This document shows positions 7,177-43,916 of a stretch of DNA of 64,000 bases, piece after piece. The DNA lies in assembly GCA_963851445.1 (NCBI GenBank), contig CAWKPH010000001.1, positions 61,813-125,812 on the forward strand, in the 5' to 3' direction. Made by a program: the position numbers and the translations under genes. The notes under the pieces were generated by a model that ran no database searches, was not told the origin of the DNA, and saw only the letters and a program-made list of their open reading frames with translations. This DNA is from an uncultured bacterium (GTDB lineage: Bacteria > Patescibacteriota > Minisyncoccia > Phycocordibacterales > Phycocordibacteraceae). Positions within the stretch are counted from its first letter, which is position 1; every line of letters begins with the position of its first letter.

Positions 7177-7874
7177 CTATTGAAGTTTTTGTTTGAAGAA
7201 GTCGAGAATAATCGGCCACGTGAGATCTGATGCTTCTTTGTCGTAACTTGGTCGATCATCAGTGAGATACGCGTGCTGTGCGCCACTAAACTCGACTTGA
7301 ATGTATTTCTTTCCTGCCGCGTCCATGGCTTTCGGAATCTGACTCCAGATATCACGCCCGAGACGCAAATCAGCACTCCCCCAAAAGAAGAGCATGGGGG
7401 CTGAGAGATTTGGAACACGATCAAGAAGGTCAGGTGCTATACCGCTGCCGTAGAGCGAAATAGCTGCCTTGAACGGTAATACGCTATTGGCTATATACGC
7501 AGAGCGACCGCCCATGCAAAAACCGATGATGCCAATGGCGCCTCCTACACCCGGTTGCGACGAAAGCCATTCATGGCTCGCTCGTGCGTCATTTTCAATT
7601 TCCTCATGTTTCAAGGCTTGTATAAGCGGCATGATTTCCTCAATGGGTGCATCCTGCTTTGCGAACCCTGGAGAAGTGCGGTAAAGAGTTCTGGCGCCAC
7701 TGCTAAATATCCCTCAGCAGCAATACGATCCGCAACGCGTTTTATATAGCCATTCACGCCAAACGCTTCTTGAAAGACGATTACACCTCCTCTTATATTC
7801 CCTTTTGGTCTTGATACATATGCCTGCATCTCACTTCCATCATTTACTTTAAGGGTCACGTAATTCTCTTGCAT
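7177..7874 (-). pseudogene. Dienelactone hydrolase family gene interrupted by a 1-nt indel (or sequencing error)
   Basis: ORFs 7611..7874 (N-terminal part, …APELF) and 7177..7632 (C-terminal part) are collinear with one DLH. Frame -1 continues …YRTSPGFAKQDAPIEEIMPLIQ…. The shift maps to a T3 run (+strand AAA, 7684-7686). Confidence 0.6.
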
Positions 7875-9668: not shown

Positions 9669-10974
9669 TTATTCCTGAATGAAGGTCAGTGCTTTACCGG
9701 CTGCACCTGCACGCCCTGTGCGGCCAATACGGTGGGTATAGTCCTCGTAGGTCGCGGGAAGATCGTAGTTTATAACGTGCGAAACAGCACTTATATCTAG
9801 GCCGCGTGCAGCGACATCGGTAGCTACAAGAACATTCACCTGACCTTGTTTGAAGAGGCCAAGCGCCTTCTGGCGACGCCCATGTGTCTTATCGCCATGG
9901 ATGGAATCAGCACGAATACCAACGTGATTAAGATCTCGTTCAAGACGCTCAACGCCATGCTTGGTACGGCCAAAGACGATTACCTTGTCGAACCCAGGTT
10001 GTTTAAGCAGGTTGGCAAGTACTTCGAGTTTTGATTCACCTGCCTTGATGCGGACAACATCTTGATCGACGGTCGCCGCGGTATCGCGTGTCTTTACCGA
10101 TACGACTACGGGCTTGTTGAGAAATTCGCCAACGAGCTTTTCGATTTCGCGTGAGAGCGTCGCTGAAAAGAACAACGTGTGGCGGGGGCTTGGCATTTGT
10201 CCGAGTATAAAGCGCATATCTGGAATGAATCCCATATCTAGCATACGATCAGCTTCATCGAGAACGACCGTGCCAAAGCTAGAAAAATTAAGTTCTCCTC
10301 GTTCTGCAAGATCCTTCAACCGCCCAGGAGTACCGATGACGAAGTTAGGATTGCGGCGAAGCTGTCGCATTTGTGGAACGATATTCGCCCCACCGACGCA
10401 ACAGACTGCATTAATGTTGAGAGTTTTTGCGAAGCCATAGAATTCCTGCTCGATTTGAAGCGCAAGTTCACGAGTAGGAACCATGATGAGTACGCGTTCA
10501 TCCTGTCCGAGTACGACGAAGCTTTATGATTTTGTCGAGAAGCGGAACGAGAAAGGCTGCTGTTTTACCAGTCCCTGTCTGCGCCATACCGACAACATCC
10601 TGACCCTTGAGCGCGAACGGAATTGCTTTGTCCTGAATCGGGGTTGGGGTTATATAGCCCTTTTTAATAATGTTGTCCTTGAGACGTTGGTCGATAGGAA
10701 AATCGGCGAATTGATGTTCAGGAATGAATACATCCTCGTCCTCAGTAACGACTGCCTTATTGATGAGTTTCGAAAGGTCGACGGACATCTCCTGGAAGCC
10801 TTTCTTTGACTTACCTCCTACAGAGCGGCCTCGAGAATTTGAGTACCTCGAACTGCCACGGTTACTATTTCCGCTTGAATTGTTGTTAAAACGTGAGCCG
10901 GAACTTCCACGACCGTAGTCGTTGGATCGCGGCGGGCGACGACCATCGGTACGTCGCATATATGTTGTTGCCAT
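9669..10974 (-). pseudogene. DEAD-box ATP-dependent RNA helicase interrupted by a 1-nt indel near 10498-10508 (or sequencing error)
   Basis: ORF 10498..10974 carries the Q-motif and motif I (AQTGTGKT). ORF 9669..10484 carries PTRELA, DEAD, SAT and the HRIGRTGR motifs. A second frame reads …[14 protein letters not shown] across the junction. Confidence 0.7.
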
Positions 10975-23091: not shown

Positions 23092-23115
23092 AACATCATT
23101 TTACCTTGAGAATCA

Positions 23116-23418: not shown

Positions 23419-23500
23419 AACAGCATATTAACATTTAACTTTCTGTGCCTGTCCATGAATGGCACTGGGTCTAGTATATAAAGTTAAGGTTTAAAGAGTT

Positions 23501-23521: not shown

Positions 23522-24197
23522 ACCACACAAACGGCACTAAGTGATATTTCACTTTCTTCTCGTACTCCACATAGCCCGGAAGATCTCTTGCCAATACTCG
23601 CTCTTCGTCAAGAAGTCTCCAAACGAGTACTAGTGTGAAAAGAACGAGCGTAAGGAGTCCCCACCACGAACCAAGTGCAAGTGGAGTCCCCAGAATGAGG
23701 ATGAGAGCTCCGCTGTACATAGGATGTCGGACCCAGGCGTATGTACCAGTAGAGATGACCTTCTGTCCGCTATCTACTTCAATAAGTGCAGAAGCGTACG
23801 TGTTTTCTTTAAAGACAAGGAATACGATATAGAAACCAATCACAACAAGAATATCGCCTATAATGCTTACATACGATGGCACTATGGACCAGCCGAAGCG
23901 ATGATCAAGTGCTGGAAGAATAATGACTAAAAGGAATGAGACCTGGGCAATGGATTGTATTATCTTCTGACTTGTCTCTTTCTCGTTGAGCGGACCTGCG
24001 CTTATTCGCCGCTCCAAAAGCTTCGGGTCGCTTTTCATCAAGTTGATGGTGATCGCGAAAGCCGGCCCAAAGAACGCTATGAGGAAAACCCATGCTTGCC
24101 AGTAATTAAAGGTCCATGCTGAAATAAAGAGCATTGCTGCCGTGACAGCGAGAAGTGTAAGAGATCCAATAACTGCTTTTAGGTTCACATTTTTCAT
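23520..24197 (-). CDS. Isoprenylcysteine carboxyl methyltransferase (ICMT/PEMT) family membrane methyltransferase, paralog 1
   Basis: 225 aa multi-TM ORF with C-terminal …RHPMYSGALILILG…LLDEERVL…EYEKKV, typical of ICMT. Confidence 0.75.
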   Translation of the reverse strand: MKNVNLKAVIGSLTLLAVTAAMLFISAWTFNYWQAWVFLIAFFGPAFAITINLMKSDPKLLERRISAGPLNEKETSQKIIQSIAQVSFLLVIILPALDHRFGWSIVPSYVSIIGDILVVIGFYIVFLVFKENTYASALIEVDSGQKVISTGTYAWVRHPMYSGALILILGTPLALGSWWGLLTLVLFTLVLVWRLLDEERVLARDLPGYVEYEKKVKYHLVPFVW

Positions 24198-24210
24198 CGT
24201 AAAGCTTGAA

Positions 24211-24885
24211 TTAGAAAATTCCCGGTATTAGGTGCCAGTGAACCTTCGCTTGATATTCCGTATAGCCCGATAGATTTAATGCAAGAAATTTTTCTTCGTC
24301 AAATAATCGCCAAACAAAACCTAGAGCCAGGAGAACAACTGGAACAAGTCCCCAATAAGAGCCCAGAGCCAAAGATATACCGATGAAATAGAGTATCGCA
24401 CATGAATACATTGGGTTTCGCACGATTGCATAGGGACCGGTTGAAACGACTTTTTGATCTTTCGTCACCTCGATACTCGCGGAACCAAAAGAATTTTCCT
24501 TGAACACTCGATACACCATCCACATGCTCAGTATGATGATGAGGTCGCCCATGATGGGAACCCAGGATGGCGCGCTCGACCATACAAAACGGTGATCGAA
24601 CCCGGGAACAATGAATGTAGCGATGAGCGGCACTCCTAGAGCCCATACTATGATCTTTTGGATAGGCCGGTGTTCTTCGGTTGGTCCACCTCGAGTTCTA
24701 TTTTCGAGTAGTATCGGATCGTTAGTTATGTAAAGGGTTATGGGGATGCTCGTCACGACGACGACTCCAAGAAATAGCCATGCCTGCCAGTACTGTATGG
24801 TCCCAGCCGAAAGAAATATTGCAAGTCCCATAAGGATAATTGTTATAACAAATCCGAACCAGGCTCCTGCTTTAGGATTCTTCAT
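24211..24885 (-). CDS. ICMT/PEMT family membrane methyltransferase, paralog 2
   Basis: 224 aa ORF with the same architecture as the adjacent paralog (…RNPMYSCAILYFIG…FDEEKFL…EYQAKV). Confidence 0.75.
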   Translation of the reverse strand: MKNPKAGAWFGFVITIILMGLAIFLSAGTIQYWQAWLFLGVVVVTSIPITLYITNDPILLENRTRGGPTEEHRPIQKIIVWALGVPLIATFIVPGFDHRFVWSSAPSWVPIMGDLIIILSMWMVYRVFKENSFGSASIEVTKDQKVVSTGPYAIVRNPMYSCAILYFIGISLALGSYWGLVPVVLLALGFVWRLFDEEKFLALNLSGYTEYQAKVHWHLIPGIF

Positions 24886-24906
24886 GACTTAAGGATAGCA
24901 CTATTC

Positions 24907-24927
24907 GACCATTCTCGGATTCGAACT
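24907..24927 (+). repeat. Copy 1 of the 21-nt element (+strand GACCATTCTCGGATTCGAACT; mRNA-sense AGTTCGAATCCGAGAATGGTC)
   Basis: Matches copy 2 at 20 of 21 positions. Lies about 20 nt upstream of the ICMT-2 start codon within a ~60-80-nt homologous upstream block. Confidence 0.5.
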
Positions 24928-24992
24928 GATTTCGCGTCCAAGAATATGAAAGCCCTTGGTCTTTCGATATTTCGATTCGAGTCTCAGAGGGA

Positions 24993-25595
24993 TCAGAATG
25001 ATCCTGTTTTGACTTCGCCTGCGCGTTGAAAATTAGCGATGATGACACCACTCGGGGTATGTATGCATTTCTCCAAAGTAAAAGCTGCAGGAATCGTACC
25101 AACTTCGAAAAGTCGTTTCCCGACACCGAGCGTAATGGGGAAAATTTTGAGCCAAAGCTCGTCAACAAGATCGTATTTAAGAAGTGTCTGGATGAAATTC
25201 CCACTGCCGTGCACCTGCAATTCCAGACCATCTTGCTGCTTCAATTTCTGGATTTCACCGATCACATTTTCTTTGAGCACAACTGTCTTCTCCCAATCGG
25301 TTTCAAGTGGCGTAGTGCTGGCGACGTATTTCGTTGCTTTGTTGATGCTGTTTCCAATCGGGTTGTCATTATGGAGCGGCCAATACGACTTGAAGATGTC
25401 GTATGTCTTCCTGCCGAGGAGCAAGTCGAACGGATGTTCCAATTGCTCAAGCATCACTTTGCCGCCAACCTCGTCCATATACGGAACTGTCCATCCGCCG
25501 TATTTGAAATCACCCGAAGTATCTTCTTGCGGGCCTCCTGGCGCCTGCATAACACCGTCGAGTGTAACAAAAGACAGGACAATTATCTTTCTCAT
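24993..25595 (-). CDS. Dihydrofolate reductase family protein (RibD C-terminal domain type)
   Basis: 200 aa ORF; N-terminus MRKIIVLSFVTLDGVMQAPGGPQED…GRKTYD is typical of the RibD_C/DHFR-like family. Confidence 0.75.
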   Translation of the reverse strand: MRKIIVLSFVTLDGVMQAPGGPQEDTSGDFKYGGWTVPYMDEVGGKVMLEQLEHPFDLLLGRKTYDIFKSYWPLHNDNPIGNSINKATKYVASTTPLETDWEKTVVLKENVIGEIQKLKQQDGLELQVHGSGNFIQTLLKYDLVDELWLKIFPITLGVGKRLFEVGTIPAAFTLEKCIHTPSGVIIANFQRAGEVKTGSF

Positions 25596-25622
25596 CCAGA
25601 GATTTTAACACACCAAGATGAT

Positions 25623-25643
25623 GACCTTTCTCGGATTCGAACT
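25623..25643 (+). repeat. Copy 2 of the 21-nt element (+strand GACCTTTCTCGGATTCGAACT)
   Basis: Matches copy 1 at 20 of 21 positions and lies about 30 nt upstream of the DHFR-family start codon. Confidence 0.5.
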
Positions 25644-25804
25644 CAATCTATGACTTACATACTCATCTCGAATCTTAGACCCGTTATGACTCCTCTAGGA
25701 AATTATTTTCCGCTCGCCAAACGGCGCCTTAGATATTCGCATGTGTCCTGGTCGTTCGATACTTAACTAGACTGCTGGAAGTGTGGAACGATATCCGAAC
25801 AGAA

Positions 25805-26209
25805 TTAGCTTTTTCTTCTGTTCAATAAAGTCACAGAAAATTGAAGAATGGTAGCGAATGTTACCCACGCGAGATACGGGAGATTACTATACGCAATCCA
25901 AGGTGCATATGTATATACAGAAAGAAGAGCCCACACTAAGGTAATGTCGACGAGCAATATATCGACAAGAGCAAGCGAGAAGTTCTGTAATCGGAATTGA
26001 ATAGTTGTGTAAGAGAAATTAAAAATTAGATTCAATAGAAACGGGAGTATTACTACAAAAGGCACTCCTTTATTAAAATATTCCAAGAATATATATCCAA
26101 AAGAAATTACGATCACTACGTAAAGAACCGTCCATACAGGAGCGAATAGCCATGCGGGAGGCGACCACGACGGTTTTCGGTATTCTTTGTATCTAGAGTC
26201 ATTCTTCAT
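25805..26209 (-). CDS. TspO/MBR (tryptophan-rich sensory protein) family
   Basis: 134 aa ORF with the PPAWLFAPVWTVLY motif and a multi-TM, Trp-rich sequence. Confidence 0.7.
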   Translation of the reverse strand: MKNDSRYKEYRKPSWSPPAWLFAPVWTVLYVVIVISFGYIFLEYFNKGVPFVVILPFLLNLIFNFSYTTIQFRLQNFSLALVDILLVDITLVWALLSVYTYAPWIAYSNLPYLAWVTFATILQFSVTLLNRRKS

Positions 26210-26271
26210 TCAAAAAGTATAGCCCATCTAGATTGGCTGGGAGTCTGGTACGACGTGGGAACCTTTTTGCG

Positions 26272-26910
26272 CTAGCGTACAGGTTGTCCAGCTAGGATTT
26301 GGAATACAAATTGCAAAAGCATAAATTGGTCGTAAATATCCTTCATTATCTCGCTTAAGGTTTCATCCTTCATCGAATTAATCTTTTCTATCAATTCAGG
26401 ATTCTCGGGATACCTAAGTAGTAAATTTTTCGGGTCAGGATATGGCCGACCCAAATATAAGTGATTCCTATATTTCAAGATTATCTCGGGTAATTTCTTC
26501 TCCCAGTAAAGAAGTGTTCCTGAATATATAAGAACTTGTGGAAGTTTTGTTTTCTTTCCTTGTATATCTACTTCCACATAATCAAAGGCATTCTCAAGCT
26601 CATCTACAGGAAGTGTTCGAAGAAGTAAGGAAATCTCTTTACCTACTTTCCGAAGGTCATGCTCATTCCGAATAGGTATCTTAAACTGAATGCTATAAGC
26701 CTTCATGGCTAATTCCAACCCATGTTTGAAGAGATAGATGGCCACTCCAATTCCATTTTTCTGTGTTCCCCAATCTTTTCTATCCTGTATCTCTTTAGCT
26801 AAGATTTTTGCATTAGAGAGATATTCTAGCGCAAAGCTAAACCAGTCCAAGAAGCCTTTCTCAAACGGCTGTCCTTCAACAATATTATCTTTGTTTATTC
26901 TTACCGCCAT
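26272..26910 (-). CDS. Hypothetical protein encoded in AT-rich (~33% GC) segment
   Basis: 212 aa ORF with no recognizable family. The local GC drop relative to ~50% flanks suggests foreign origin. Confidence 0.5.
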   Translation of the reverse strand: MAVRINKDNIVEGQPFEKGFLDWFSFALEYLSNAKILAKEIQDRKDWGTQKNGIGVAIYLFKHGLELAMKAYSIQFKIPIRNEHDLRKVGKEISLLLRTLPVDELENAFDYVEVDIQGKKTKLPQVLIYSGTLLYWEKKLPEIILKYRNHLYLGRPYPDPKNLLLRYPENPELIEKINSMKDETLSEIMKDIYDQFMLLQFVFQILAGQPVR

Positions 26911-27312
26911 TTTGAATTAATTATTTAAATGTAACGCGTTTCTTTTTAAGGTACACTCCAAGTCCAAGAGCTACCATATATGACCATGCTGTCCATTTTC
27001 GTCCAAAATCTTTTCTCCCACATATTTCTCTCTGGATCTCCACCAAATTTACTACTATTGGCCATCGTCTTATAAACATCCTCAGAAATAAAGATATTTA
27101 AGGAATCATCATTTATGGATGACAACTTTACGGCATAAAGCATTTCAATCGAAAATTCTAGGACAGAAGGAAGAAGAATGTAAGGCGAAGGAGGTAGATA
27201 TAAGAAACTATGCCAAATATCTCTTACGTGAAGGAGCTGACGTAGAGAAGCGAGAATTGCTCGGATGCCTTAGAAGCAAAATACTTTTAAGCGACAAGAC
27301 TATTTCTCTCGG

Positions 27313-27825
27313 CTAGGCTGTGTAATTCGTCTCAATATTTAGCTGAGCTTTTATTTCAAGTGCACGCGCCATCAGATGATCGCCTATCTCCCCCCAATCG
27401 AAATACTCCTTATAGTCCTTAGGGTCTATTAATTTTATCTCGGTAATATCTCCGTCGGGATCACTTACAAAATTTCCATACGGTTCGACCAAACAAACAG
27501 AGCGCGTCTGCGAGATGATCCCTTCAGAATTGTGAATATCTTGATAGCCAATAAATCGCTGTTTAAGTACACGCATGTTAGTTTCCTCTTTTACTTCACG
27601 GCTCACAGCTTCTCGAGCAGTTTCTCCTTCTTCAACACCTCCCCCGGGAGGAGTCCAATACCCTTTATTCTTTGCATACACGATAACTAACTGGTCTTTA
27701 TAGAAACAATATGCGTGAACTCCACTAATCTTTTTATCGCCATAATCTAGCTCACTATTAATATCGTGGTATTCAACTTTTAGTACTTCACCTGAAGCGT
27801 TAGTTAGATTTGATGAGATGTTCAT
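27313..27825 (-). CDS. NUDIX hydrolase
   Basis: Contains the Nudix box GGGVEEGETAREAVSREVKEETN. Confidence 0.8.
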   Translation of the reverse strand: MNISSNLTNASGEVLKVEYHDINSELDYGDKKISGVHAYCFYKDQLVIVYAKNKGYWTPPGGGVEEGETAREAVSREVKEETNMRVLKQRFIGYQDIHNSEGIISQTRSVCLVEPYGNFVSDPDGDITEIKLIDPKDYKEYFDWGEIGDHLMARALEIKAQLNIETNYTA

Positions 27826-28802
27826 ACGTACAGCTTTTGAATTATATCTCCTTGAATAAAGTCCCTAAGTAACCGAGCTTCATGCGACACAAAGTGATTT
27901 CCTCGAGCGTCTCCTAGATCGTAGTAATGGTTCTCAAGCCATGAAGTTAGTACCATGCGGCGAAGTCGGACTTCTAGTCCATCCAGTAGTTCCTTTCTTA
28001 AAATTGGATAAATGGAATTGTATCCAGCAATAATTTCATTCGCTGAAGCAACTCCACTTTCTTCGGTATAGTCACCGGTAAAGCTTATGTAAAGAATAGC
28101 GCGAGCAAGTTCAGCTGCACGAGGAGCCATTTCTGCCTTTTCCCAGTCACATACTCCGATGATTTCTCGACTCTTTGTATCTATAAGAAGATTTCCCGCC
28201 TGATAGTCACCGTGCGTCAGAATATCGCTTGGTAGTACTATATCCATACTAAGCGTTGAAATGAGATCGAGCTTTAGTTGTGTGTACGAAATAAATTCTT
28301 CGTCGATAGGATCTTTCGTTTCTTTGCTTTCAATACGCACTTTGTATTCCTGTATCTTCGCTAGCTCTCCTTCCTTTGGTTTTTCTCGAAATGACTTCTG
28401 CGTGAGAAGTTCTGGAACATCTTTACTGCCTGCAACATGTATCTTGCCTAAGAGAACTCCCATGTTTCTATAGCCTTCGAGGGAGTAGTTATGTGAACGA
28501 TCGCTTTCCAGGAACGGGTAGAGTGAATACGCATTACTGTCATATACCACAAACTTCTCTCCCATATTTGAAGGAATCATACAGACAGCAGGAATGTCTC
28601 GTTCGCTCATAAGCTCCTCAACTAATGCAGTTGCTGGAAGTATATCCTTGCTCTTCTCTCGCACTTCCTTAATGAAGTACTTTCCCGAGCTTGTCGAGAG
28701 TATGTAGTTTTTGTTGAGAATTCCTTCTGTCACCTCGCTAATAGATTGAACGTCACCCAAGCTAAAATCTGTAACTAGCTTCTTGAGGTGCTCGGGGCTC
28801 AT
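27822..28802 (-). CDS. Phosphotransferase enzyme family protein (APH/choline-kinase-like)
   Basis: Contains the HGDYQAGNLLID catalytic loop and a CDWE motif. The stop overlaps the NUDIX start by 4 nt. Confidence 0.75.
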   Translation of the reverse strand: MSPEHLKKLVTDFSLGDVQSISEVTEGILNKNYILSTSSGKYFIKEVREKSKDILPATALVEELMSERDIPAVCMIPSNMGEKFVVYDSNAYSLYPFLESDRSHNYSLEGYRNMGVLLGKIHVAGSKDVPELLTQKSFREKPKEGELAKIQEYKVRIESKETKDPIDEEFISYTQLKLDLISTLSMDIVLPSDILTHGDYQAGNLLIDTKSREIIGVCDWEKAEMAPRAAELARAILYISFTGDYTEESGVASANEIIAGYNSIYPILRKELLDGLEVRLRRMVLTSWLENHYYDLGDARGNHFVSHEARLLRDFIQGDIIQKLYV

Positions 28803-28804
28803 GT

Positions 28805-30868
28805 TTAAATATTAGACTTACTGCCCACTCCGAGTTGATCAAACACAAAGCTCCATACATCCGCCTCCTGCTCAACTGCACGTGAGACAGCAAATGCTCC
28901 GCTGTGTCCAGCTTTCATTTCGACACGCATAAGTATCGGATGATCTGAGACATTTGCTTCCTGCAAGCGAGCAGCGAGCTTATAGGCGTGAAGTGGATGT
29001 ACTCGATCATCTCCGTCCGAGGTCATGATGAGCGTTGCCGGATACTTTTCGCCGTCCTTTACGTTATGGTACGGACTATAGCCAAAAAGATACGGAATCA
29101 TATCTGGATCATCAGGATCTCCAAAATCAGGGATCCAATGCCTACCGCCGTGGTGAAGATGGAAACGCAACATGTCAGATACAGGAACTCGGCAAACCAC
29201 AGCCTGGACCAAATCAGGTCGCTGTGTTTCAAGAGCAGAGACAAGTAGACCGCCGTTGCTTCCTCCCATAATGGCAAGCTTCTTTTTTGAAGAGTACTTC
29301 TGTGCGATTAAGTATTCCGCAGCTGCAATGAAATCATCAAACACATTTTGCTTGCTCTTCTTCATACCAGCTTCGTGCCACTTACGCCCAAACTCACCAC
29401 CGCCGCGAAGATTCGCTACTGCATAGATACCCCCACGCTCGATGAGTGGTATTGGATTAATCGTATACGCTGGGCGAAGGCTAATATCAAATCCTCCGTA
29501 TCCATAGAGCATAGTCGGATTATTCCCATCCTTTTGCAGACCTTTCTTGTACACGAGGAACATAGGGACTTTCGTACCATCCTTTGATGTAAACCAAACT
29601 TGCTCAGTTACGATCTCGTCCGTATTGAAGGTCGCTTGTACTTTGTGAAAAATGGAAGTAGTTCCAGACTCCAAATCCATCCTAAAAATAGTCGGCGGGT
29701 ACGCGAACGAGGTAAATGAATAAAACATTTCTTTACCCTCTGATTCGCCAGACATTCCTCCGGCAGTTCCGATGCCAGGCAATTCAATATTTCGTACACA
29801 CTCTCCTGTTAGCGTGTACTCGTTAATGACCGACTGAACATTATGGGTATATTCCACAAATAGTTTTTCACCGATAAATTTAAAGGCAGCGAGGAGATCA
29901 TCACTCTCTGGCAAAATATCGGTAAATTCTGGCTTACCTGCAAGTGCCTTTTCAACGGGAGTTGCCATGAGCTTGAAGTGCGGTGCATTATCATTTGTAC
30001 TTACGTAGAGCATGTCGCGATGAATATGTCCGCCCTGCTCTGCACCAGGCACACGCTTCAATACGAGTGTGAAATCAGATTTTGTGTTTGCTTCCTTAAT
30101 ATAAATCTCTGACCAGTTCTCTCCATTTTCTTGACCCCATATTGTCCCAAGGAGGTACTTATTGTCATCTGACAAACGTACTGATGGCTGCCACTCTTTC
30201 GCAAACCCCTTACCCCATACATAAGAATCTTTATCCGAAGTCTCTCCAATTGTATGGAAGTACAGTCTCTTGTGGAATTTAGGTTCATTTTCTGGTGCAT
30301 CAGGATCACGCCGTACATACCAGAAGCCAGTACCGTCTGCATTCCATGCGCTCATAGCGGGATACAGGTCGTCTGGAATGAGGTCTGGAAGCGTATCGCC
30401 CGTATCGACGTTCAGTACATGCAAATCCCGTTTATCATTTCCAGATTTTGAAAGACCATATACAATCCATTTCCCGTCGCGTGACGGTGTCCAGCCTGAA
30501 AGAATAGTTGTCTTATCAGGAGATAGTGTATTTGGGTCTATGAGTATTCGCTCATTTCCTTCGAGATCTTCTCGAACATACAGCACTGGCATGTCCTGCT
30601 TTGGTTCGCGCTTGCTGTAGAAGTAACGGTTATTCCGCACAATAGGAGTCCCGACTGATTCAAATTCAGCGAGTTCTTTAAGCTCGTCTCGAAGTATGTT
30701 TCGTATAGGAAGTGAGGAAAAATATTCCGAGGCGACATTACCCTGTTTAGTGAGCCAGTCATGTAGTTGCGTTTCATTTGGATCGCCTTCTAGCCAACGG
30801 TATGGATCAGGTACTTTTGTGCCGTGTAAATCTTCAATAAGATCTTCCTTTCGAGTCTCTAATTTCAT
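28805..30868 (-). CDS. Prolyl oligopeptidase (S9A) family serine peptidase
   Basis: 687 aa ORF with an N-terminal beta-propeller and a C-terminal alpha/beta hydrolase carrying the GGSNGGLL nucleophile motif. Confidence 0.9.
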   Translation of the reverse strand: MKLETRKEDLIEDLHGTKVPDPYRWLEGDPNETQLHDWLTKQGNVASEYFSSLPIRNILRDELKELAEFESVGTPIVRNNRYFYSKREPKQDMPVLYVREDLEGNERILIDPNTLSPDKTTILSGWTPSRDGKWIVYGLSKSGNDKRDLHVLNVDTGDTLPDLIPDDLYPAMSAWNADGTGFWYVRRDPDAPENEPKFHKRLYFHTIGETSDKDSYVWGKGFAKEWQPSVRLSDDNKYLLGTIWGQENGENWSEIYIKEANTKSDFTLVLKRVPGAEQGGHIHRDMLYVSTNDNAPHFKLMATPVEKALAGKPEFTDILPESDDLLAAFKFIGEKLFVEYTHNVQSVINEYTLTGECVRNIELPGIGTAGGMSGESEGKEMFYSFTSFAYPPTIFRMDLESGTTSIFHKVQATFNTDEIVTEQVWFTSKDGTKVPMFLVYKKGLQKDGNNPTMLYGYGGFDISLRPAYTINPIPLIERGGIYAVANLRGGGEFGRKWHEAGMKKSKQNVFDDFIAAAEYLIAQKYSSKKKLAIMGGSNGGLLVSALETQRPDLVQAVVCRVPVSDMLRFHLHHGGRHWIPDFGDPDDPDMIPYLFGYSPYHNVKDGEKYPATLIMTSDGDDRVHPLHAYKLAARLQEANVSDHPILMRVEMKAGHSGAFAVSRAVEQEADVWSFVFDQLGVGSKSNI

Positions 30869-30914
30869 ACATGCATTTTATCAGAAGTATCTCCTTTCTA
30901 TAACTAGCGATGGC

Positions 30915-30929
30915 TTTAGGACTCGAACC
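30915..30929 (-). repeat. tRNA T-arm-like fragment (GGTTCGAGTCCTAAA on minus strand), copy A
   Basis: Identical 15-mer to copy B, 65 nt away. No acceptor or anticodon arms can be formed. Confidence 0.4.
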
Positions 30930-30980
30930 GAAATCCATCCCATATTTAAAAGAGTTCTAACTTTTCCTAATCTGCACCTG

Positions 30981-30995
30981 TTTAGGACTCGAACC
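30981..30995 (-). repeat. tRNA T-arm-like fragment (GGTTCGAGTCCTAAA), copy B
   Basis: Shares GGTTCGAGTCCTA with the T-arm of the intact tRNA-Gln 60 nt upstream. Confidence 0.4.
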
Positions 30996-31056
30996 CGAGC
31001 CTTCAAAATATCCTTTAGTTATCTACGCGTCTCGAGCGCGATAACCTAGCACGAGT

Positions 31057-31130
31057 TGGCTGCGAGACTAGGACTCGAACCTAGATAACGACCTCCAGAG
31101 GGTCGCGTCCTACCATTAGACGATCTCGCA
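31057..31130 (-). tRNA. tRNA-Gln (anticodon CUG), CCA encoded
   Basis: Manual cloverleaf: acceptor TGCGAGA/TCTCGCA (U1:A72, G73), D-arm GTCT/GGAC, anticodon stem CGACC/GGTCG with loop CTCTGGA, T-arm CTAGG-TTCGAGT-CCTAG, then GCCA. Confidence 0.85.
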
Positions 31131-31254
31131 ATGGTGATGCCCAAACTGCAAACGCGGCAGCATCCTACCGCGTAGTAGTTAATAGAATACTTTAAAAGGA
31201 AGCCCCATTCAAGCAGCCTCTTTTTTAATATAATGCGCTATATCTTTCGACTGA

Positions 31255-31686
31255 TTAGAACCACATCCCGAACAATGCACCCATTAGTAGAAGCGTTACA
31301 AGAAATTGTCCCGCGTTGATCCACCAAAGTTTCCATGGCTTCCCCTCCCAGAGCACGCTCGGCAAGAGCACCGGTGCAACAAAACCAAGCCATGCGAAAA
31401 AACCGACAGAGAGTCCGGTAACAATTCCTTTGTTATCTAAGTACGCCGACGTATGCAGATACGCGCGAGAAAGTATGAATGCCATTACGAGTGCTCCAAT
31501 GAATTGGAGGAGGTATTTACCGCCCATACCCTTTCGCATCTTCATCTTTTCTTCGTGAGACATGTTCTTCATATCCATGCCTGTCATGCGCATCCACGGT
31601 TTCCCAAATAACGGCCCATACCAGAGTGTACCAACCACCATGGCGAGAACTGCAGCCACCACTACTGCTAAAAGATGAATTGACAT
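31255..31686 (-). CDS. DUF1761 family membrane protein
   Basis: 143 aa ORF; N-terminus MSIHLLAVVVAAVLAMVVGTLWYGPLFGKPW and four TM helices match DUF1761. Confidence 0.55.
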   Translation of the reverse strand: MSIHLLAVVVAAVLAMVVGTLWYGPLFGKPWMRMTGMDMKNMSHEEKMKMRKGMGGKYLLQFIGALVMAFILSRAYLHTSAYLDNKGIVTGLSVGFFAWLGFVAPVLLPSVLWEGKPWKLWWINAGQFLVTLLLMGALFGMWF

Positions 31687-31742
31687 AGTATCTACGGATT
31701 TATTAGAGCGGATTTTTGCCCGCTAACGCAAAGATACCATGA

Positions 31743-32588
31743 CTACGGGTTTGTTGGAGCAGTTGTTGATGTATTACTTGAGCCCTTCACTGCGACGTAG
31801 ATCGTGGCAATATCAGCACGTGCTGCTTTAAGATCATTGGTCGCAGTCTGAATTTTTGACTTAGCGTCTTTGATCGTCGCGCTGTTTGAAGCCTCAATGG
31901 TTGTATTCCCCTGATCAGGCTGCAGGCCCACTGTCTCGCTAAGTGCAGCTGCAGCTTGCGTGTTTGCATCAGATATCTTTGCGTTCATATCGGTATACGC
32001 AGATACTGCAGCAGAAGGATTTCCAGCGGCAGTAATGCGCGTTTCGAGTTTTGGTGCAAGACCTTGCATAAGACCGACGATGGTATCAATACGATCGGAG
32101 GTTGCTGCAATCCGTACTTGTGGAAGCACGAGCAGATAAATACGATAGTTCTTGGTGATCGTTGCAGCGTCTGCTCGAAGAGTCGCCCCAGTTGTATCGC
32201 TGTTAATTTGTGCCTCAAGGGTATTCATTTCAGTTATTTGCGCTGAGAGAATTCCCTGAAGAGACGTCACCTCACTTGCCGAAAGATTTTTCACCCCACC
32301 AAGACGTGTTGAGGCTGAGTTCAAGGATGAAATGCGCGCGCTGATTGCCGCATCTGCTGCAGTCTGCGCCGTGGTGAATCGTGCGCTAGTATGGGTACCC
32401 GTAGTTGTAGTGACGGGAGCGTTAGTAACTGAAACACCGGTAGTTGCACCCACTACGGTACTTGTGACAGGAGTTTGTACTCCAACGTTTGCGTTTACAC
32501 CTATAGTCTGTGCTAATGCCGCTACTGGTAAAGTTGCCGCGAGCACGGCGATGCTAAGTAAACTTGCTATACGTGATGTTTTTTTCAT
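31743..32588 (-). CDS. Secreted hypothetical protein (signal peptide, Thr/Ala-rich, helical)
   Basis: 281 aa ORF with a signal peptide (MKKTSRIASLLSIAVLAATLPVAALA) and no family assignment. Confidence 0.45.
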   Translation of the reverse strand: MKKTSRIASLLSIAVLAATLPVAALAQTIGVNANVGVQTPVTSTVVGATTGVSVTNAPVTTTTGTHTSARFTTAQTAADAAISARISSLNSASTRLGGVKNLSASEVTSLQGILSAQITEMNTLEAQINSDTTGATLRADAATITKNYRIYLLVLPQVRIAATSDRIDTIVGLMQGLAPKLETRITAAGNPSAAVSAYTDMNAKISDANTQAAAALSETVGLQPDQGNTTIEASNSATIKDAKSKIQTATNDLKAARADIATIYVAVKGSSNTSTTAPTNP

Positions 32589-32612
32589 AAGTATTGATGT
32601 TGGTTTAGGGAG

Positions 32613-32906
32613 CTATGGGTTGATCGTGTTCTGCGCATTGGCATTATCCGTAGCGAGGCCTCCCATTTGGGTGTCAATTGCAGCAGTATCTTCTTCAAGC
32701 GCCGTATTAGAATCACTTGACCCTCCGGGAAGCGCCGTACTCGCCCTTGGCAGTGTGCCAGAAGCAGCGACTGCCGCTGCTGAATTAGTATTAGCGCTTC
32801 CTCCAAGCGTCCCAGAAGCCATACGTGTGGTCAGGTAATACGCGCCTCCCACAAGCACCAAAATTACAACAACGCCAACCACTGCCTTAGTCGTAGCATT
32901 AGACAT
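32613..32906 (-). CDS. Small membrane-anchored hypothetical protein
   Basis: 97 aa ORF with an N-terminal TM helix and an Ala/Ser/Thr-rich tail; paired with the upstream secreted protein. Confidence 0.4.
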   Translation of the reverse strand: MSNATTKAVVGVVVILVLVGGAYYLTTRMASGTLGGSANTNSAAAVAASGTLPRASTALPGGSSDSNTALEEDTAAIDTQMGGLATDNANAQNTINP

Positions 32907-33012
32907 AGATCAATTTATTAATCATATAACTAGTATCTCCTGATTATATCGCCTTTAACGGGCTTACTAACGAGCAGGTTGTATAACCTTCTCAAAGAAT
33001 AAGACGATTGTC

Positions 33013-34664
33013 CTAGGCTTTCCTTTCAGCTCTTTTTGCAGAAGCTTTAAGAAATGCTGTAAATAGGGGGTGTGGAGAGAGCGGACGCGCCTGGAGCTCG
33101 GGATGAAATTGTGTACCGAGATAGAACGGATGTTTGTCCTTAGGGAGTTCTGCAATCTCCATAAGCACATTATCGGGAGAGGTGCCTGAGAAAACGAGGC
33201 CTCCTTTTTCGATTTGCTCTACATATTGAGGATTTATCTCATAGCGGTGACGGTGACGTTCTTCAACAACCTCTTTACCGTATGCTTCCTGAGCAACACT
33301 CCCCTTTTTAAGATGTGCTGGATATACGCCAAGCCGCATAGTGCCGCCATATTGATTCTGTTCGAGAAGCGCAATCTGTTCGGGCATTACGTCTACCACG
33401 GGGTACTTAGTCCCAGGATTTATTTCGACGGTGTGGGCTCCCTCAAGACCAAGGACATTTCGAGCGTATTCGATGACGAGCATATGGAGTCCGTAGCAGA
33501 GTCCGAATAAGGTATTTTATTCTCGCGCGCAAAGCGTGCGGCTTTAATCTTCCCTTCGATTCCTGTTTTGCCAAAACCTCCCGGCACAATGATGCCATCA
33601 TATTTCGAAAGCGTTTCGATATCAGTATCCTTTTCGAAATCCTTTGCATTAACCCACTCTATTTTGGGCTTGACTCCGATCTCCGCACCAGAGAATTTCA
33701 ACGCTTCGATTACTGAAAGGACGCATCAGAAAGCACGTAGTCACCCGTATCAAAATACTTTCCAACGATTCCGATGGTGACTTCATCGTCACTCAGCCTG
33801 GCCTTCTGCACAAAATTGCGCCATTCGTGAAGTCCTGTCGATTCGGATTTAGGGAGTGAAAGTGACTCAAGTAGTAGCTCACCAAGGTTGTCCTTTTCAA
33901 AATTGAGTGGGACATCATAGATGCTTTCAACATCGGGTGCAGAGATTATGCATTCGGGAGAAACATTACACCATATGGCAAGTTTTTCTTTGCGCTTCTC
34001 ATCCATAGCGCCCGTCGATCGTGCAATGATGAAGTCAGGTTGTACACCATAGGAGTTGAGTTCGCGAATGGCGGTCTGCGTGGGCTTGGTCTTCATTTCG
34101 CCAAGCGTACCTGGAACAGGTAGGTACGAGACCATGACAAAACGGACATCGTTTGGGTGCTGGAGTCGAAGTACGCGCGCTGCCTCTATGAAAAGTGCGT
34201 TCTGAAAATCTCCTACCGTTCCGCCTATTTCTATTACTGAAATCTGGCTACCGTTCTGGGCGGATGCCGCATAGATCCGACGCAGGATCTCGTCGCGTAC
34301 ATGAGGAATTGCTTCAATCGTTTTACCGCCATACTCGAGTGCACGTTCGCGATTGATTACGGATTGGTACACCATGCCACTTGTCATGTAGTCTTCGCTT
34401 GAGAGGTCGCGACCAAGAAAAACGTTCGTAATTACCCATATCCTGGTCAGTCTCAAGCCCACTACGCAGCACAAACACCTCCCCATGCTCAGTCGGATTC
34501 ATCGTGCCCGCATCAACATTAAGGTAAGGGTCAATCTTTACAAGATTGACCGTATACCCACGCCCTGTAAGAAGGAGTCCCATCGATGAAGTTGCGATGC
34601 CCTTGCCTACACCAGACATCACCCCTCCTATTACGAAGATATACTTGTGTCCTTCGGTTGCCAT
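33013..34664 (-). pseudogene. pyrG: CTP synthase (pyrG) broken by three single-nucleotide indels (or sequencing errors)
   Basis: Four consecutive ORFs (34323..34664, 33710..34486, 33420..33701, 33013..33483) are collinear with PyrG: synthetase N-terminus ([11 protein letters not shown]…[13 protein letters not shown]), middle, and GATase domain (…GIIVPGGFG…, …[21 protein letters not shown]…, …HRHRYEIN…). Junctions lie near 34424-34428 (A5 run), 33717-33722 and 33505-33509. Confidence 0.8.
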
Positions 34665-34695: not shown

Positions 34696-35625
34696 TTAAA
34701 TGCGCAAATACCGACGAACTGCTAAATAACTTGCAAACCCACCGAGCAAAATACCGGAACCGAGAATGATGCCCGCTATCATGAGAAAGTTCTGTAGGTA
34801 GTACGAAAGAATATCAAATCCTCCGAGCCACGAGGAATAATTACTACCGATATACCAAATGGCTGGTGAGTAAATGAGAAGCGCGATAAATCCTGAAATG
34901 ATGCCAGCGAGTACCCCAGCGACGATAAAGGGACCTCGAATATAGGCGTTGCTTGCTCCTACGAGGCGCATTACAGCAATCTCATCGCGCGAGCTATAGA
35001 TAGCTAGACGTATAGTTGCAAGAGCAATGATAGTAGACGCAAGTGCAAAAATAATGACGATAATAAGCCCTGCTTGTTCGGTCGTATGAATAGTAGAGGT
35101 AAGACGATTAATAATCGTTTCATTCTCGTAATAGTTGATGTGATCGACAATTGAGGTTCCGTTGACGTTTAGACCTTGATCATTGTTAATGTAATTTACA
35201 ATATCCGGGTAATCCGCAGGATTTACGGCCTTAATATCGAGTGATGCTCCGAGTGGATTCGAACCAAGTTCATTAAGCGCATTCAAGGTAAGCTGGTCGC
35301 CTGCGTGGCGCGTCGTGAACTGTGAAAGTGCATCGGCGGCAGAGGTATAGGTTACCTGAGCGACTTCAGGATTTTGTTCGAGCTGGTCCTTGAGATTAAG
35401 TACATCGCCTTCGGCGGCGCTCGTAGTGAAATAGACTGTTACGTCAACTTTGTTCTGAATCTGCTGAAGTGTGTATGAAAGGAGCGCAGAAAGGAAAATG
35501 AGGAAACCGATGATCATGAGTGTCACGGTCATAATAAGTACTGTCGCAAATGAGACAGCGCCGCTTCGAAAGAAGTTTTTTGATCCACCAGAGAGCACGC
35601 GACGAAGTGAAGTGAACATGCTCAT
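34696..35625 (-). CDS. ftsX: Cell division permease FtsX
   Basis: 309 aa ORF with four TM helices and a large extracytoplasmic loop; immediately follows ftsE. Confidence 0.9.
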   Translation of the reverse strand: MSMFTSLRRVLSGGSKNFFRSGAVSFATVLIMTVTLMIIGFLIFLSALLSYTLQQIQNKVDVTVYFTTSAAEGDVLNLKDQLEQNPEVAQVTYTSAADALSQFTTRHAGDQLTLNALNELGSNPLGASLDIKAVNPADYPDIVNYINNDQGLNVNGTSIVDHINYYENETIINRLTSTIHTTEQAGLIIVIIFALASTIIALATIRLAIYSSRDEIAVMRLVGASNAYIRGPFIVAGVLAGIISGFIALLIYSPAIWYIGSNYSSWLGGFDILSYYLQNFLMIAGIILGSGILLGGFASYLAVRRYLRI

Positions 35626-35627
35626 GA

Positions 35628-36308
35628 TTATAGTATGTACTGGCCTTGTGGATCGTCGCGGATGACACGCCCGCGATCCATCGTAATAACTCGTCTGCCC
35701 ATTGCATCGACTACACCCTTGTTGTGCGTCGTGATAATAACGATTGTGCCGAGTTCATTGATTTTCTTCAATATCTCAACGATTTCATAGGTGTTAATTG
35801 GATCAAGGTTGCCTGTGGGCTCATCGGCAATAATGACATCAGGTTGATTGATGATTGCACGGCCAATCGCAACGCGCTGCTGCTCACCGCCAGAGAGCTG
35901 ATGGGGAAAATGATTTGCTTTTGAAACGAGATCTACAAGATCAAGAATATAAGGCACATCCGACTCAATCTCATCGTCAGGTCTTCCTGCGGCTTCCATA
36001 GCGAATGCAATATTCTCGTACGCAGTCTTGTTCGGAATAAGACGAAAATCCTGAAATACCATACCTATCTTGCGTCGATAGTTATGCATCATGCTTGGAC
36101 GAAGTGAGTGCACATCGATGTCCTCGAAATAGACTGCACCTGAAGTAGGACGCTCCTGCGCGAGGAGCATCTTAAGGAGGGTGGTCTTGCCAGCGCCTGA
36201 GTGGCCAACGACCGATACAAATTCTTTTGGATTAACCGTGAGGGTGATGTCTTCTAGAGCCGGGGTTCCATCACGATAAATCTTTGAAACATTGTCGAAT
36301 TGAATCAT
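35628..36308 (-). CDS. ftsE: Cell division ATP-binding protein FtsE
   Basis: 226 aa ABC ATPase (GHSGAGKTT, LSGGEQQRVAIGRAI) located upstream of ftsX. Confidence 0.9.
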   Translation of the reverse strand: MIQFDNVSKIYRDGTPALEDITLTVNPKEFVSVVGHSGAGKTTLLKMLLAQERPTSGAVYFEDIDVHSLRPSMMHNYRRKIGMVFQDFRLIPNKTAYENIAFAMEAAGRPDDEIESDVPYILDLVDLVSKANHFPHQLSGGEQQRVAIGRAIINQPDVIIADEPTGNLDPINTYEIVEILKKINELGTIVIITTHNKGVVDAMGRRVITMDRGRVIRDDPQGQYIL

Positions 36309-36322
36309 GAGCGGTTCGTCTC

Positions 36323-37210
36323 CTATTGTACCTTATTTGCCGCAGCTGCGTCCATGAAATTATCAAGCTCTCCTCCAAGAACTGCCTCGGGGTCATGCGA
36401 TTCATACCCGGTTTCGTGGTCTTTTACGAGTTTATAGGGGTGGAGAATGTAGGAACGCATCTGGCTACCCCATTCATTGGCGGTTTCGGCGGCTATAGAC
36501 CGACCCTTGGCTTCAAGTTCTTGTTTTCTTTCTTCCCGAGCGAACAATTTTGCACGAATAAGTTCCATCGCTTTCTCTCGATTAGCTTGCTGAGAACGCT
36601 CGCTCGAGACGTGGACTGAGACTCCTGAGGGTGTATGGGTAATACGCACCGCAGTCTCACGCTTATTGACGTTCTGACCGCCCGCTCCTCCCGAGCGTGC
36701 AAATTGAATGTCCAGGTCTTCCGGACGCAGATCAACTTTCTCATTAGGCGCAAGCTTGGGGAGTACTTCGACGAGCGCAAATGAGGTCTGACGCTTGCTA
36801 TTAGCATTAAATGGAGAAATTCGCACCAAGCGATGCACGCCGGACTCATGCTTTAGTCGTCCGTAGACGCCTACACCACTAATTTCAAGGAGTACATTGC
36901 GGTAACCACCGTTATTGTTCTCGTTGGCATGGAGCTCCCAGGTAGTCCATCCTTTTTTCTGTGCATACCCCTCATACATCCTGCGCAGCATACGTGCGAA
37001 ATCCTCTGCGTCATCGCCACCTGCACCCGCGAGAATGGCAAGTGTTGCGGACCCACGATCATGAACGTCCCCCCCAGCATTACCCAGAGTAGCTGCATCT
37101 TTTAAGTTCTGATATTCACGCACGAGTTTCTGCGCCTCATCTTTGTCTGCCCAGAATTCGGGCGTGGCCATTAGCGCTTCAATTTCTTCGAGTCGCAACT
37201 TTTCATCCAT
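36323..37210 (-). CDS. prfB: Peptide chain release factor 2 (N-terminally short, no programmed-frameshift site)
   Basis: 295 aa ORF with the SPF tripeptide (RISPFNA) and GGQ (SGGAGGQ) motifs. It aligns to RF2 from about residue 30, and a tRNA gene lies 45 nt upstream. Confidence 0.85.
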   Translation of the reverse strand: MDEKLRLEEIEALMATPEFWADKDEAQKLVREYQNLKDAATLGNAGGDVHDRGSATLAILAGAGGDDAEDFARMLRRMYEGYAQKKGWTTWELHANENNNGGYRNVLLEISGVGVYGRLKHESGVHRLVRISPFNANSKRQTSFALVEVLPKLAPNEKVDLRPEDLDIQFARSGGAGGQNVNKRETAVRITHTPSGVSVHVSSERSQQANREKAMELIRAKLFAREERKQELEAKGRSIAAETANEWGSQMRSYILHPYKLVKDHETGYESHDPEAVLGGELDNFMDAAAANKVQ

Positions 37211-37255: not shown

Positions 37256-37331
37256 TGGAGCCATCTCGGAGGATCGAACTCCGGACCTTTACGTTACGAA
37301 TGTAATGCTCTACCAACTGAGCTAAGATGGC
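37256..37331 (-). tRNA. tRNA-Thr (anticodon CGU), CCA encoded
   Basis: Cloverleaf: acceptor GCCATCT/AGATGGC, D-arm GCTC-AGTTGGTAG-GAGC, anticodon loop TTCGTAA (CGT), T-arm CGGAG-TTCGATC-CTCCG. Has an A31·C39 mismatch. Confidence 0.8.
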
Positions 37332-37383
37332 ACTCTATAGTTATAGCAAACCGCATGACGACGCGCGACGGATCAAACCGTGA

Positions 37384-37456
37384 GCCGATGTCCGGGATCG
37401 GACCGGAGACCTCATCCTTACCATGGATGTGCTCTACCAACTGAGCTACATCGGCT
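37384..37456 (-). tRNA. tRNA-Thr (anticodon GGU), CCA not encoded, unusual T-loop (TCCGATC)
   Basis: Acceptor GCCGATG/CATCGGC, D-arm GCTC-AGTTGGTAG-GAGC, anticodon stem CATCC/GGATG with loop ATGGTAA, T-arm TCCGG-TCCGATC-CCGGA. Confidence 0.75.
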
Positions 37457-37545: not shown

Positions 37546-38838
37546 CTACAAAGTTGCAAACATCGCAACTGCTGCCGTTCCCATCGCAAGGAATGTAATC
37601 CAAACAATGGTGTTCGAAAGCCAACCGCTTCTATTTTCACCCATGATTTTCTTGCTCGCGGCAATCTTTGCAATAAGAAAGATGAGCGGCACCGCGACCA
37701 CCCCGTTAATTACCGCAGTAACCACGAGTGCCTTTATAGGATCAATACCAACAAAGTTGATCGTGAGTCCGATAAGCGTCGCAACGGTTATAACTCCGTA
37801 AAAGCCATGAGCTTTCGTGAGCTTCAAATTGAGACCTTCATTCCACTTGAAGGCCTCCGATACGGCATAGGATGCAGAGCCCGAAAGAATGGGGATCGCG
37901 AGGAGCCCAAGACCAATTATGCCGATGGAGAAAATGAGTTTTGCGAGATACCCGGCGTGAGGGAATGTTTGTACCAAAGGTTCGAGGGCACGAGCTGCAT
38001 CTGCAGATGTTTGGATGTTGGTAATACCATGAGCGTTCAGCACTGCGGCGCACACCACAATAATGCACCAGGTAGCTATCTCCGAAGCGACCATTCCGGC
38101 AGCATTGTCTATGCGAAGAGCTCGTATATATGATTTTCCGATGGTTGGCTTACCATGTGCGTCGATAAGCCCCTTTTCCTTCTCCTCTTCCACTTCTTGC
38201 GAAGCTTCCCAAAAAAACATGTACGGCGAGATCGTCGTACCCAACACACCGGTGATGATGAAGAGGAACGCGAAGGTGAATTGGAAATGCGGGATGAAAG
38301 TTGCTTCAAGAACGGTATACCACGGTAAGTGTACGAGAAAGACGGTGATCGGATATGCAAGCAGAACAATAGCGAGCCATTTGAGAATCCTTGCGTATAC
38401 CTTATATGAGGTAAAGATTTCGAGTACGAGAATAAGTGCCGTGAAAAAAAGCGTCGCAATGACAAAATCAACCGGCAGTATAAGCTCTACTGCCGCTGCC
38501 ATCGCACCAATATCAGCGCCTATGTTTATGGTATTGGCAACAATGACCAGGACCACCATGGGGTACAAAACCCATTTGCTGTAATTGTCGCGCACAATCG
38601 CTGCAAGACCTTTGCCTGTGACCGCGCCAATACGCGCACATGCTTCTTGTATCGCGATCAAGAGCGGAAGCATGAAAAGGGCTGTCCAGAGCTGGCCATA
38701 CCCAAACTGCGCGCCTGTTTGTGAATAGGTCGCAATGCCAGAAGGATCATCGTCGGCCGCACCTGTAACAACACCAGGTCCGAGAACCCTGAGAAAAGAG
38801 CCGAGCATGCTACCTTTTTTTTGTTCTGTTTCTTCCAT
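37546..38838 (-). CDS. NRAMP family divalent metal (Mn2+/Fe2+) transporter
   Basis: 430 aa ORF with 11-12 TM helices and NRAMP consensus segments (GPGVVTGAADDDPSGIATYSQTGAQFGY…). Confidence 0.85.
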   Translation of the reverse strand: MEETEQKKGSMLGSFLRVLGPGVVTGAADDDPSGIATYSQTGAQFGYGQLWTALFMLPLLIAIQEACARIGAVTGKGLAAIVRDNYSKWVLYPMVVLVIVANTINIGADIGAMAAAVELILPVDFVIATLFFTALILVLEIFTSYKVYARILKWLAIVLLAYPITVFLVHLPWYTVLEATFIPHFQFTFAFLFIITGVLGTTISPYMFFWEASQEVEEEKEKGLIDAHGKPTIGKSYIRALRIDNAAGMVASEIATWCIIVVCAAVLNAHGITNIQTSADAARALEPLVQTFPHAGYLAKLIFSIGIIGLGLLAIPILSGSASYAVSEAFKWNEGLNLKLTKAHGFYGVITVATLIGLTINFVGIDPIKALVVTAVINGVVAVPLIFLIAKIAASKKIMGENRSGWLSNTIVWITFLAMGTAAVAMFATL

Positions 38839-42448: not shown

Positions 42449-42505
42449 GTTTGCATGAATTGTAACTCTCTATCCCCATTCCTAAAAGGATCCTTACTTG
42501 CAAGT

Positions 42506-42534
42506 ATTTTGCGTCTGCAGTAGACTGCAAAATA
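42506..42534. promoter_or_regulatory. Inverted repeat TATTTTGC-N13-GCAAAATA overlapping the start of the Fur-family gene; candidate Fur/Zur-type operator
   Basis: A perfect 8-nt arm pair ends at the ATG (42534). Confidence 0.4.
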
Positions 42535-42959
42535 TGAAAAACAATACTGTGCCGTCAGTAGAGATACTTCGTGGAGCCGGTATGCGCGCTACACCAGGCC
42601 GCATAGAACTTATCGATGTACTCGCCAAAGAGAAAGGCCCCCTCACGGTGAAGGAAATTCAAGAGAAACTTCCCCGCCTGCTAAACGAGGTAACTCTCTA
42701 TCGTGCCCTTGAATCACTGGTGGAAATTGGACTGGTGACCCATGTCGATTTGCAGCATGGTCATGCGCATTTCGAACTTGCCGCAACACGTAAACACCAT
42801 CATCACCTCGTTTGCACTGGCTGCGGTGCGATTGAGGACTTCGTGAATGAAACATGCGAATCACTTTTGGTGAATGTTGCGAAGAAATCTACTCTTTTCA
42901 AGGTTGCCGTAAGTCATTCTATGGAAATCTTCGGGCTATGCCAAAACTGTTATGGATAA
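42534..42959 (+). CDS. Fur family transcriptional regulator (likely Zur/metal uptake regulator)
   Basis: Winged-HTH N-terminus and C-terminal HHHLVCTGCG…C..C metal sites. Heads a metal ABC transporter operon and overlaps the next gene by 8 nt. Confidence 0.8.
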   Translation: MKNNTVPSVEILRGAGMRATPGRIELIDVLAKEKGPLTVKEIQEKLPRLLNEVTLYRALESLVEIGLVTHVDLQHGHAHFELAATRKHHHHLVCTGCGAIEDFVNETCESLLVNVAKKSTLFKVAVSHSMEIFGLCQNCYG

Positions 42960-43887: not shown

Positions 43888-43916
43888 TAATTCTCGTTCG
43901 TGCTAAGGTAAAAAAC

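Follow-up and report, generated by a model that had tools for sequence, protein, structure and literature searches.

Is a gene that appears in several pieces in an assembly broken in the organism, or is it only broken in the consensus? The question is raised by pyrG, the gene for CTP synthase, in the 64-kb stretch of bacterial DNA that we analysed (the window). Four collinear ORFs on the minus strand at 33013-34664 are pieces of one such gene (Table 1).

The pyrG locus

The window does not hold a single uninterrupted ORF for PyrG, as the frame changes three times and the largest ORF is 258 aa. The Pfam domain order is kept, with ORFs 1 and 2 matching positions 1-77 and 76-265 of the 265 in CTP_synth_N (PF06418), followed by ORFs 3 and 4, which match positions 17-75 and 99-189 of the 190 in GATase (PF00117). 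An earlier description of this DNA (the sequence-only reading) had proposed that four collinear ORFs rebuild a complete PyrG and that three independent single-nucleotide frameshifts separate them. Both proposals are borne out by the Pfam order, by tblastn (Table 1) and by repair: each junction is fixed by one 1-nt edit, and the three edits turn the 1652 nt into a 1653-nt ORF that encodes 550 aa without an internal stop. The gene call P0121 (221 aa) of the source assembly matches segment 2 at 100%. P0121 sits on one contig of 687,765 bp (NCBI and ENA), a length that suggests a near-complete small genome of ~0.69 Mb.

We refer to the three junctions as J1, J2 and J3 (Table 1). The extra A/T in an A5 run that had been reported at J1 is there, but the coordinates given for it (34424-34428) were 6 bases off, the run being at 34418-34422. 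The base said to be absent at 33717-33722 was correctly placed, and it falls between 33720 and 33721 (J2). At J3, the lost T and the coordinates 33505-33509 hold, but what had been called a T-run has 2 bases only, one short of the expected 3. The residue at J2 is Tyr in 120/120 homologues, and its codon in relatives is TAC or TAT; because the Tyr is invariant, the base lost from the window is the A of TAC. A GTAC site, possibly a methylation motif, is touched both by J2 and by an indel in a DEAD-box helicase gene of the window, described below.

Upstream of the codon for the catalytic Cys, in GLCYG, its reading frame contains no start codon. Judging by the sequence, pyrG as written in the window would not be able to yield an active enzyme, because none of the fragments would supply this Cys. 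When we searched the 64-kb window with the repaired protein using tblastn, no second pyrG copy was found.

The upstream neighbours prfB, ftsE and ftsX are intact, and the order prfB-ftsE-ftsX-pyrG is kept in relatives. The release factor at the prfB position, which has PCRF and RF-1 domains, is only 295 aa long, and its match to the PCRF profile begins at position 95 of 194. There are two tRNA-Thr genes next to it, and the release-factor gene starts 45 nt after one of them, therefore there is no space for the usual N-terminal region of a release factor or for a programmed frameshift of the prfB type. The gene calls for the release factor in relatives are similar, at 285-291 aa.

Table 1. Coordinates of the features discussed in the text. 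Positions are those of the window except in the last three rows.
Feature	Position	Strand	Description
pyrG as written	33013..34664	-	1652 nt, four reading-frame segments
pyrG ORF 1	34323-34664	-	113 aa
pyrG ORF 2	33710-34486	-	258 aa
pyrG ORF 3	33420-33701	-	93 aa
pyrG ORF 4	33013-33483	-	156 aa
pyrG segment 1	34419..34664	-	Residues 1-82, P-loop part of synthase domain; tblastn 100% identity
pyrG segment 2	33722..34420	-	Residues 82-314, remaining synthase domain and linker; tblastn 100%
pyrG segment 3	33507..33719	-	Residues 316-386, first part of glutamine amidotransferase domain; tblastn 100%
pyrG segment 4	33013..33507	-	Residues 387-550 and stop codon, remaining GATase domain; tblastn 100%
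J1	34418..34422	-	T5 run (A5 on + strand) with one T extra; inside invariant GNYERFL
J2	33720..33721	-	One base absent between these positions; A of TAC, Tyr315, in invariant DAYLSVIEAL; not a homopolymer
J3	33506..33507	-	TT where TTT is expected (TAT-TTC); inside IPYFGLCYG
pyrG interior without retrieved ERR11630394 contig	33446..34427	.	982 nt; holds all three indels
prfB, ftsE, ftsX	34696..37210	-	Intact upstream neighbours
Release factor at prfB position	36323-37210	-	PCRF and RF-1 domains
tRNA-Thr genes	37256-37331, 37382-37455		
DEAD-box helicase	9669..10974	-	ORFs 10498-10974 (158 aa) and 9669-10484 (271 aa); extra G at 10514
Dienelactone hydrolase (DLH)	7177..7874	-	ORFs 7611-7874 (87 aa) and 7177-7632 (151 aa); missing T in run 7683-7685 (APELF/YRTSPGF)
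PEMT/ICMT-type methyltransferases	23520-24885	-	Two adjoining genes, 225 and 224 aa
Transport and metal-homeostasis genes	1616-5372, 37546-38838, 42498-45579, 52083-56843		
Logan contig L081	36388-34428		
Logan contig L082	33445-22613		Part of a 16-kb contig
Logan contig L085	12853-7004		
Logan contig L086	48838-37428		Part of a 15-kb contig
Related contig L083	3041-3999, 4001-5657		pyrG with one shift near a G5A3T3 stretch; ftsX split too
Related contig L084	3965-5631		Two pyrG shifts, at A8 and A6 runs
Related contig L087	1560-6399		Most genes fragmented

The repaired protein and its relatives

The repaired PyrG passes the cutoffs of two CTP synthase equivalog models with full-length alignments, NF003792 at 676.8 bits (cutoff 308, profile positions 3-532 of 534) and TIGR00337 at 660.3 bits (cutoff 462.75, positions 3-526 of 526). 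It resembles the known glutamine-hydrolysing CTP synthases in aligning with them from end to end and in keeping GNYERF, DAYLSVIEAL and GLCYG, and differs in that the frame in the window is interrupted three times and gives no full-length product. GNYERFL, DAYLSVIEAL and IPYFGLCYG, as they read after repair, all fit the 90% consensus of 120 homologues.

The closest proteins, with identities of up to 85%, are CTP synthases of full length encoded in MAGs of Patescibacteria, Paceibacteria, Parcubacteria and Kaiserbacteria, and the 80 related genomic loci that we compared come from the same groups. The sequence-only reading had guessed at a CPR organism, in agreement with these nearest homologues and loci, which are all from Patescibacteria/Paceibacteria. 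The product is full-length in all of the top 120 protein matches, and pyrG is full-length and in a single frame in 80/80 related species. Neither loss nor breakage of pyrG was found among these 80 loci, and no relative (0/80) has a frameshift at the position of J1, J2 or J3. We take the locus to be the ordinary CTP synthase gene, present in one copy, of a Paceibacteria-like bacterium (Patescibacteria).

Across the 550 codons of the repaired gene we saw no sign of relaxed selection, either as an excess of changes at conserved sites or as stop codons. The protein is off consensus at 2 of 274 near-invariant columns, where the mean for the 120 intact homologues is 1.5 and at least 2 such deviations are present in 37% of them, and it has 5 unique residues compared with a homologue mean of 3.5. 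The usual neutral ratio is about one indel per ten substitutions. Three neutral indels should therefore be accompanied by ~20 or more substitutions, several of them at invariant sites, and by about one stop codon, and none of this is seen. The disruption is therefore either extremely recent or not biological, although the test is weak if the indel-to-substitution ratio of the lineage is unusually high.

We also measured the longest exact DNA matches to the 80 relatives at the three sites, as a test for unusually conserved DNA that might draw in reads from relatives. They are 17, 17 and 21 nt long (66th to 87th percentile). No nucleotide salvage genes were seen within the 64-kb window.

Other frameshifts in the window

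The main ORFs of the window were scanned with Pfam, with the annotations for 22613-33445 taken from the gene table of contig L082, and the frameshift survey covers the ORFs that have a Pfam match. Two further genes are split, a DEAD-box helicase and a dienelactone hydrolase (DLH), and the remaining Pfam-matching ORFs look whole, including those of 1033, 687, 613, 608, 596 and 551 aa. Both of the split genes can be checked against a contig of the same strain, L085, with different outcomes, one of the frameshifts being assembly-specific and the other reproduced. In L085, the helicase gene is intact (434 aa) and does not have the extra G at 10514; the window and L085 also differ by a synonymous T/C SNP at 10401, 113 nt from the indel. 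The DLH frameshift is present in L085 too, and DLH is probably a genuine pseudogene or else carries an error that is common to both assemblies.

In total there are five frameshifting indels in ~54 kb of coding sequence, and three of them are in pyrG alone. Corrected for the number of gene-sized bins, the probability of this clustering is ~0.009, therefore we regard it as non-random. Homopolymer runs of 6-8 bases occur 32 times inside intact ORFs, therefore the consensus is generally very good, and with such a low error rate elsewhere a local cause is needed for pyrG. We rejected a classic long-read homopolymer error, given that the sites are a T5 run, a position outside any run and a TT, while the runs of 6-8 bases lie within intact ORFs.

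Two other groups of genes in the window can be recorded here. Transport and metal-homeostasis genes are plentiful for a genome of ~0.69 Mb; they include an MFS transporter with two HlyD-like proteins, Nramp, Fur with ZnuABC, and an AcrB-type pump with a HlyD-like partner (Table 1). The gene table of L082 lists two adjoining paralogous genes for PEMT/ICMT-type membrane methyltransferases.

Independent contigs from run ERR11630394

Contigs with the same strain were found in the Logan assembly of run ERR11630394 by exact-protein look-up. The four contigs (L081, L082, L085 and L086) show only 2 differences from the window in 30,054 nt, both in the DEAD-box helicase, and L082 reproduces the window exactly at 33013-33445, within pyrG segment 4. 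L081 ends at 34428 and L082 begins at 33445, and these ends bound the stretch of the pyrG interior for which no contig was retrieved (Table 1). In a short-query search with the middle fragment of pyrG, which is not exhaustive, the source contig was the only one to give a product of at least 130 aa at 100% identity, and no read-derived contig did so. A second short-query protein search for the pyrG interior returned nothing identical and missed P0121 as well, so this absence is only suggestive. Exact look-ups of three pyrG fragment products and of P0121 gave no match, and we found nothing usable in the literature on run ERR11630394 or on CTP synthase in Patescibacteria.

If pyrG were a clean, fixed pseudogene, the contigs should assemble straight through it, as they do through DLH. 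The break over pyrG suggests branching or heterogeneity of the reads in a conserved stretch. The ends of the ERR11630394 contigs are at 37428, 36388, 34428, 33445, 17274, 12853 and 7004, and they fall in a tRNA-Thr, prfB, pyrG (twice), a YgjP-like gene, typA and a PAP2 gene. Apart from those in pyrG, three of the five ends are in conserved genes (tRNA-Thr, prfB and typA). That the ends are mostly in conserved genes suggests k-mers that are common to other members of the community. Inspected by hand, 4 of the 6 breaks in coding regions have a candidate third-position variant compared with 3.3 expected, which is uninformative.

A consensus error is the probable cause

Based on these comparisons, we believe, with a probability of roughly 0.65, that the indels in pyrG arose as local errors in the consensus of a long-read metagenome assembly, caused by heterogeneous reads. 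We favour this explanation because the repaired gene shows no relaxed selection, because pyrG is intact in 80/80 related species, because a same-strain contig from ERR11630394 contradicts the frameshift in the DEAD-box helicase, and because the three indels are all within the 982 nt for which no contig was retrieved from that run, whereas contigs nearby extend for 16 and 15 kb. The source is probably a long-read metagenome assembly; a link to the Danish long-read project is our guess from the contig naming and the database sources. A conserved stretch of ~1 kb may have been built or polished from a mixed set of reads, which could come from a second close haplotype or could have been recruited from related Paceibacteria. 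The living cell would then most likely make a full-length PyrG of 550 aa. The discrepancy in the DEAD-box helicase, where an indel and a synonymous SNP are within 113 nt, appears to be of the same character as the errors in pyrG.

Related contigs with Flye-style names (ENA assemblies) also carry a split pyrG, at different positions (L083, L084 and L087, Table 1), and these splits look like typical long-read noise. A Nanopore-only workflow with Flye and Medaka has been described for such soil MAGs (PMC12313526). The indels in the window are like Nanopore metagenome errors in being 1-nt indels in an otherwise perfect gene, and the Flye-style contigs likewise have split pyrG and ftsX. They are unlike such errors in their sites. 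Errors of this type usually fall in long homopolymers, as in L084 with its A8 and A6 runs, whereas the sites in the window are one run of 5 bases, one of 2 and a position outside any run. They also lie together within 1 kb of a 64-kb stretch that is otherwise almost free of errors. Clustered sites outside homopolymers point to local heterogeneity of the reads rather than to homopolymer base-calling. The suggestion in the sequence-only reading of an uncorrected long-read or homopolymer error is thus favoured as far as an artefact is concerned, but not in its homopolymer form.

Some observations count against a consensus error. There is no read or contig with an intact allele at J1, J2 or J3, and the indels are away from long homopolymers, which are the usual seat of consensus errors in long-read assemblies. 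In addition, the DLH frameshift is reproduced in L085, which makes it probable that the genome does contain genuine pseudogenes.

Possible inactivation, recoding or splitting of the gene

The main alternative is that pyrG is a genuine and recent pseudogene, fixed or polymorphic, which is decaying by small indels in a lineage that takes its cytidine nucleotides from a host or from the environment. We consider this doubtful, but there is real evidence for it. The indels are in the consensus of a very accurate assembly (2 differences in 30 kb compared with the read-derived contigs), they are not of the long-homopolymer type, and the gene would be non-functional as written, with the catalytic Cys of GLCYG unsupplied. 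The window has another broken gene, DLH, whose frameshift recurs in L085. Patescibacteria are known for reduced biosynthesis, and frameshift pseudogenes are a feature of reductive genome evolution in host-dependent bacteria. The pyrG locus is like such pseudogenes in having several small disabling indels in a biosynthetic gene of a very small genome, in which the DLH pseudogene appears genuine. It is unlike them in having neither stops nor an excess of substitutions at conserved sites, and in having an orthologue that is intact in every relative sampled.

Selection does not appear to be relaxed anywhere across the 550 codons, the repaired frame has no stop codons, and three independent indels with essentially no substitutions are unlikely under the usual mutation spectra. 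No decay is seen among the relatives either, as pyrG is intact in all 80. A fixed pseudogene should moreover have assembled cleanly in ERR11630394, as DLH did, and a read-derived contig contradicts the frameshift in the DEAD-box helicase, which is the one further case in a conserved gene that can be checked. Should the indels be real, which we think is the less probable case, this lineage, alone when compared with its 80 relatives, would have just inactivated its CTP synthase and would import cytidine nucleotides, at a stage too early for any further decay to show. The lesion may be polymorphic, with different alleles in different cells, which would account for the break in the read graph. As an alternative to a sequencing error, the sequence-only reading had proposed that the organism, like episymbiotic CPR bacteria, has truly lost de novo CTP synthesis and depends on a host. 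CPR was correct, but with 80/80 relatives intact and no decay in the gene, the loss is less favoured than an artefact.

It is very improbable that programmed recoding, by ribosomal frameshifting or transcriptional slippage, restores a full PyrG. J1 lies in CGU-UUU-UCU, and a +1 slip of tRNA-Phe along its U run is possible in principle, but J2 and J3 have no slippery sequence, the homopolymers are too short for transcriptional slippage, and the codon for the invariant Tyr at J2 is physically incomplete, which a slip cannot restore. None of the 80 relatives is shifted at these sites, and three events in opposite directions (+1, -1, -1) in one gene would be unprecedented. A programmed +1 frameshift is known in prfB, and pyrG is like it only in the U-rich stretch of J1, where a +1 slip is conceivable; unlike the site in prfB, J1 has no in-frame stop or rare codon and is not conserved in relatives, and pyrG would need two more shifts at non-slippery sites, one of which destroys a codon. 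We therefore excluded programmed recoding on the grounds that J2 lacks a codon base, that J2 and J3 are non-slippery and that no relative is shifted.

The least probable explanation, which we give almost no weight, is a functional split gene whose four ORFs are separate subunits that form an active enzyme: each of the fragments retains a match to some part of the two Pfam domains, but the breaks are within domains and within invariant motifs (GNYERFL, DAYLSVIEAL, IPYFGLCYG) rather than between domains, the frame of the GLCYG nucleophile offers no start codon, the fragments bear out-of-frame tails, and no relative is split at these points.

What the frameshifts would mean

If the indels are a consensus artefact, as we favour, a near-perfect long contig can still hold a few false frameshifts close together in one conserved gene, and a metabolic reconstruction based on it would wrongly score the organism as lacking CTP synthesis. 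If they are real, the locus would be a snapshot of the first steps in the loss of a near-universal nucleotide-synthesis enzyme from an ultra-small bacterium. This would not be a new kind of biology, but it would bear moderately on host dependence in the Patescibacteria.
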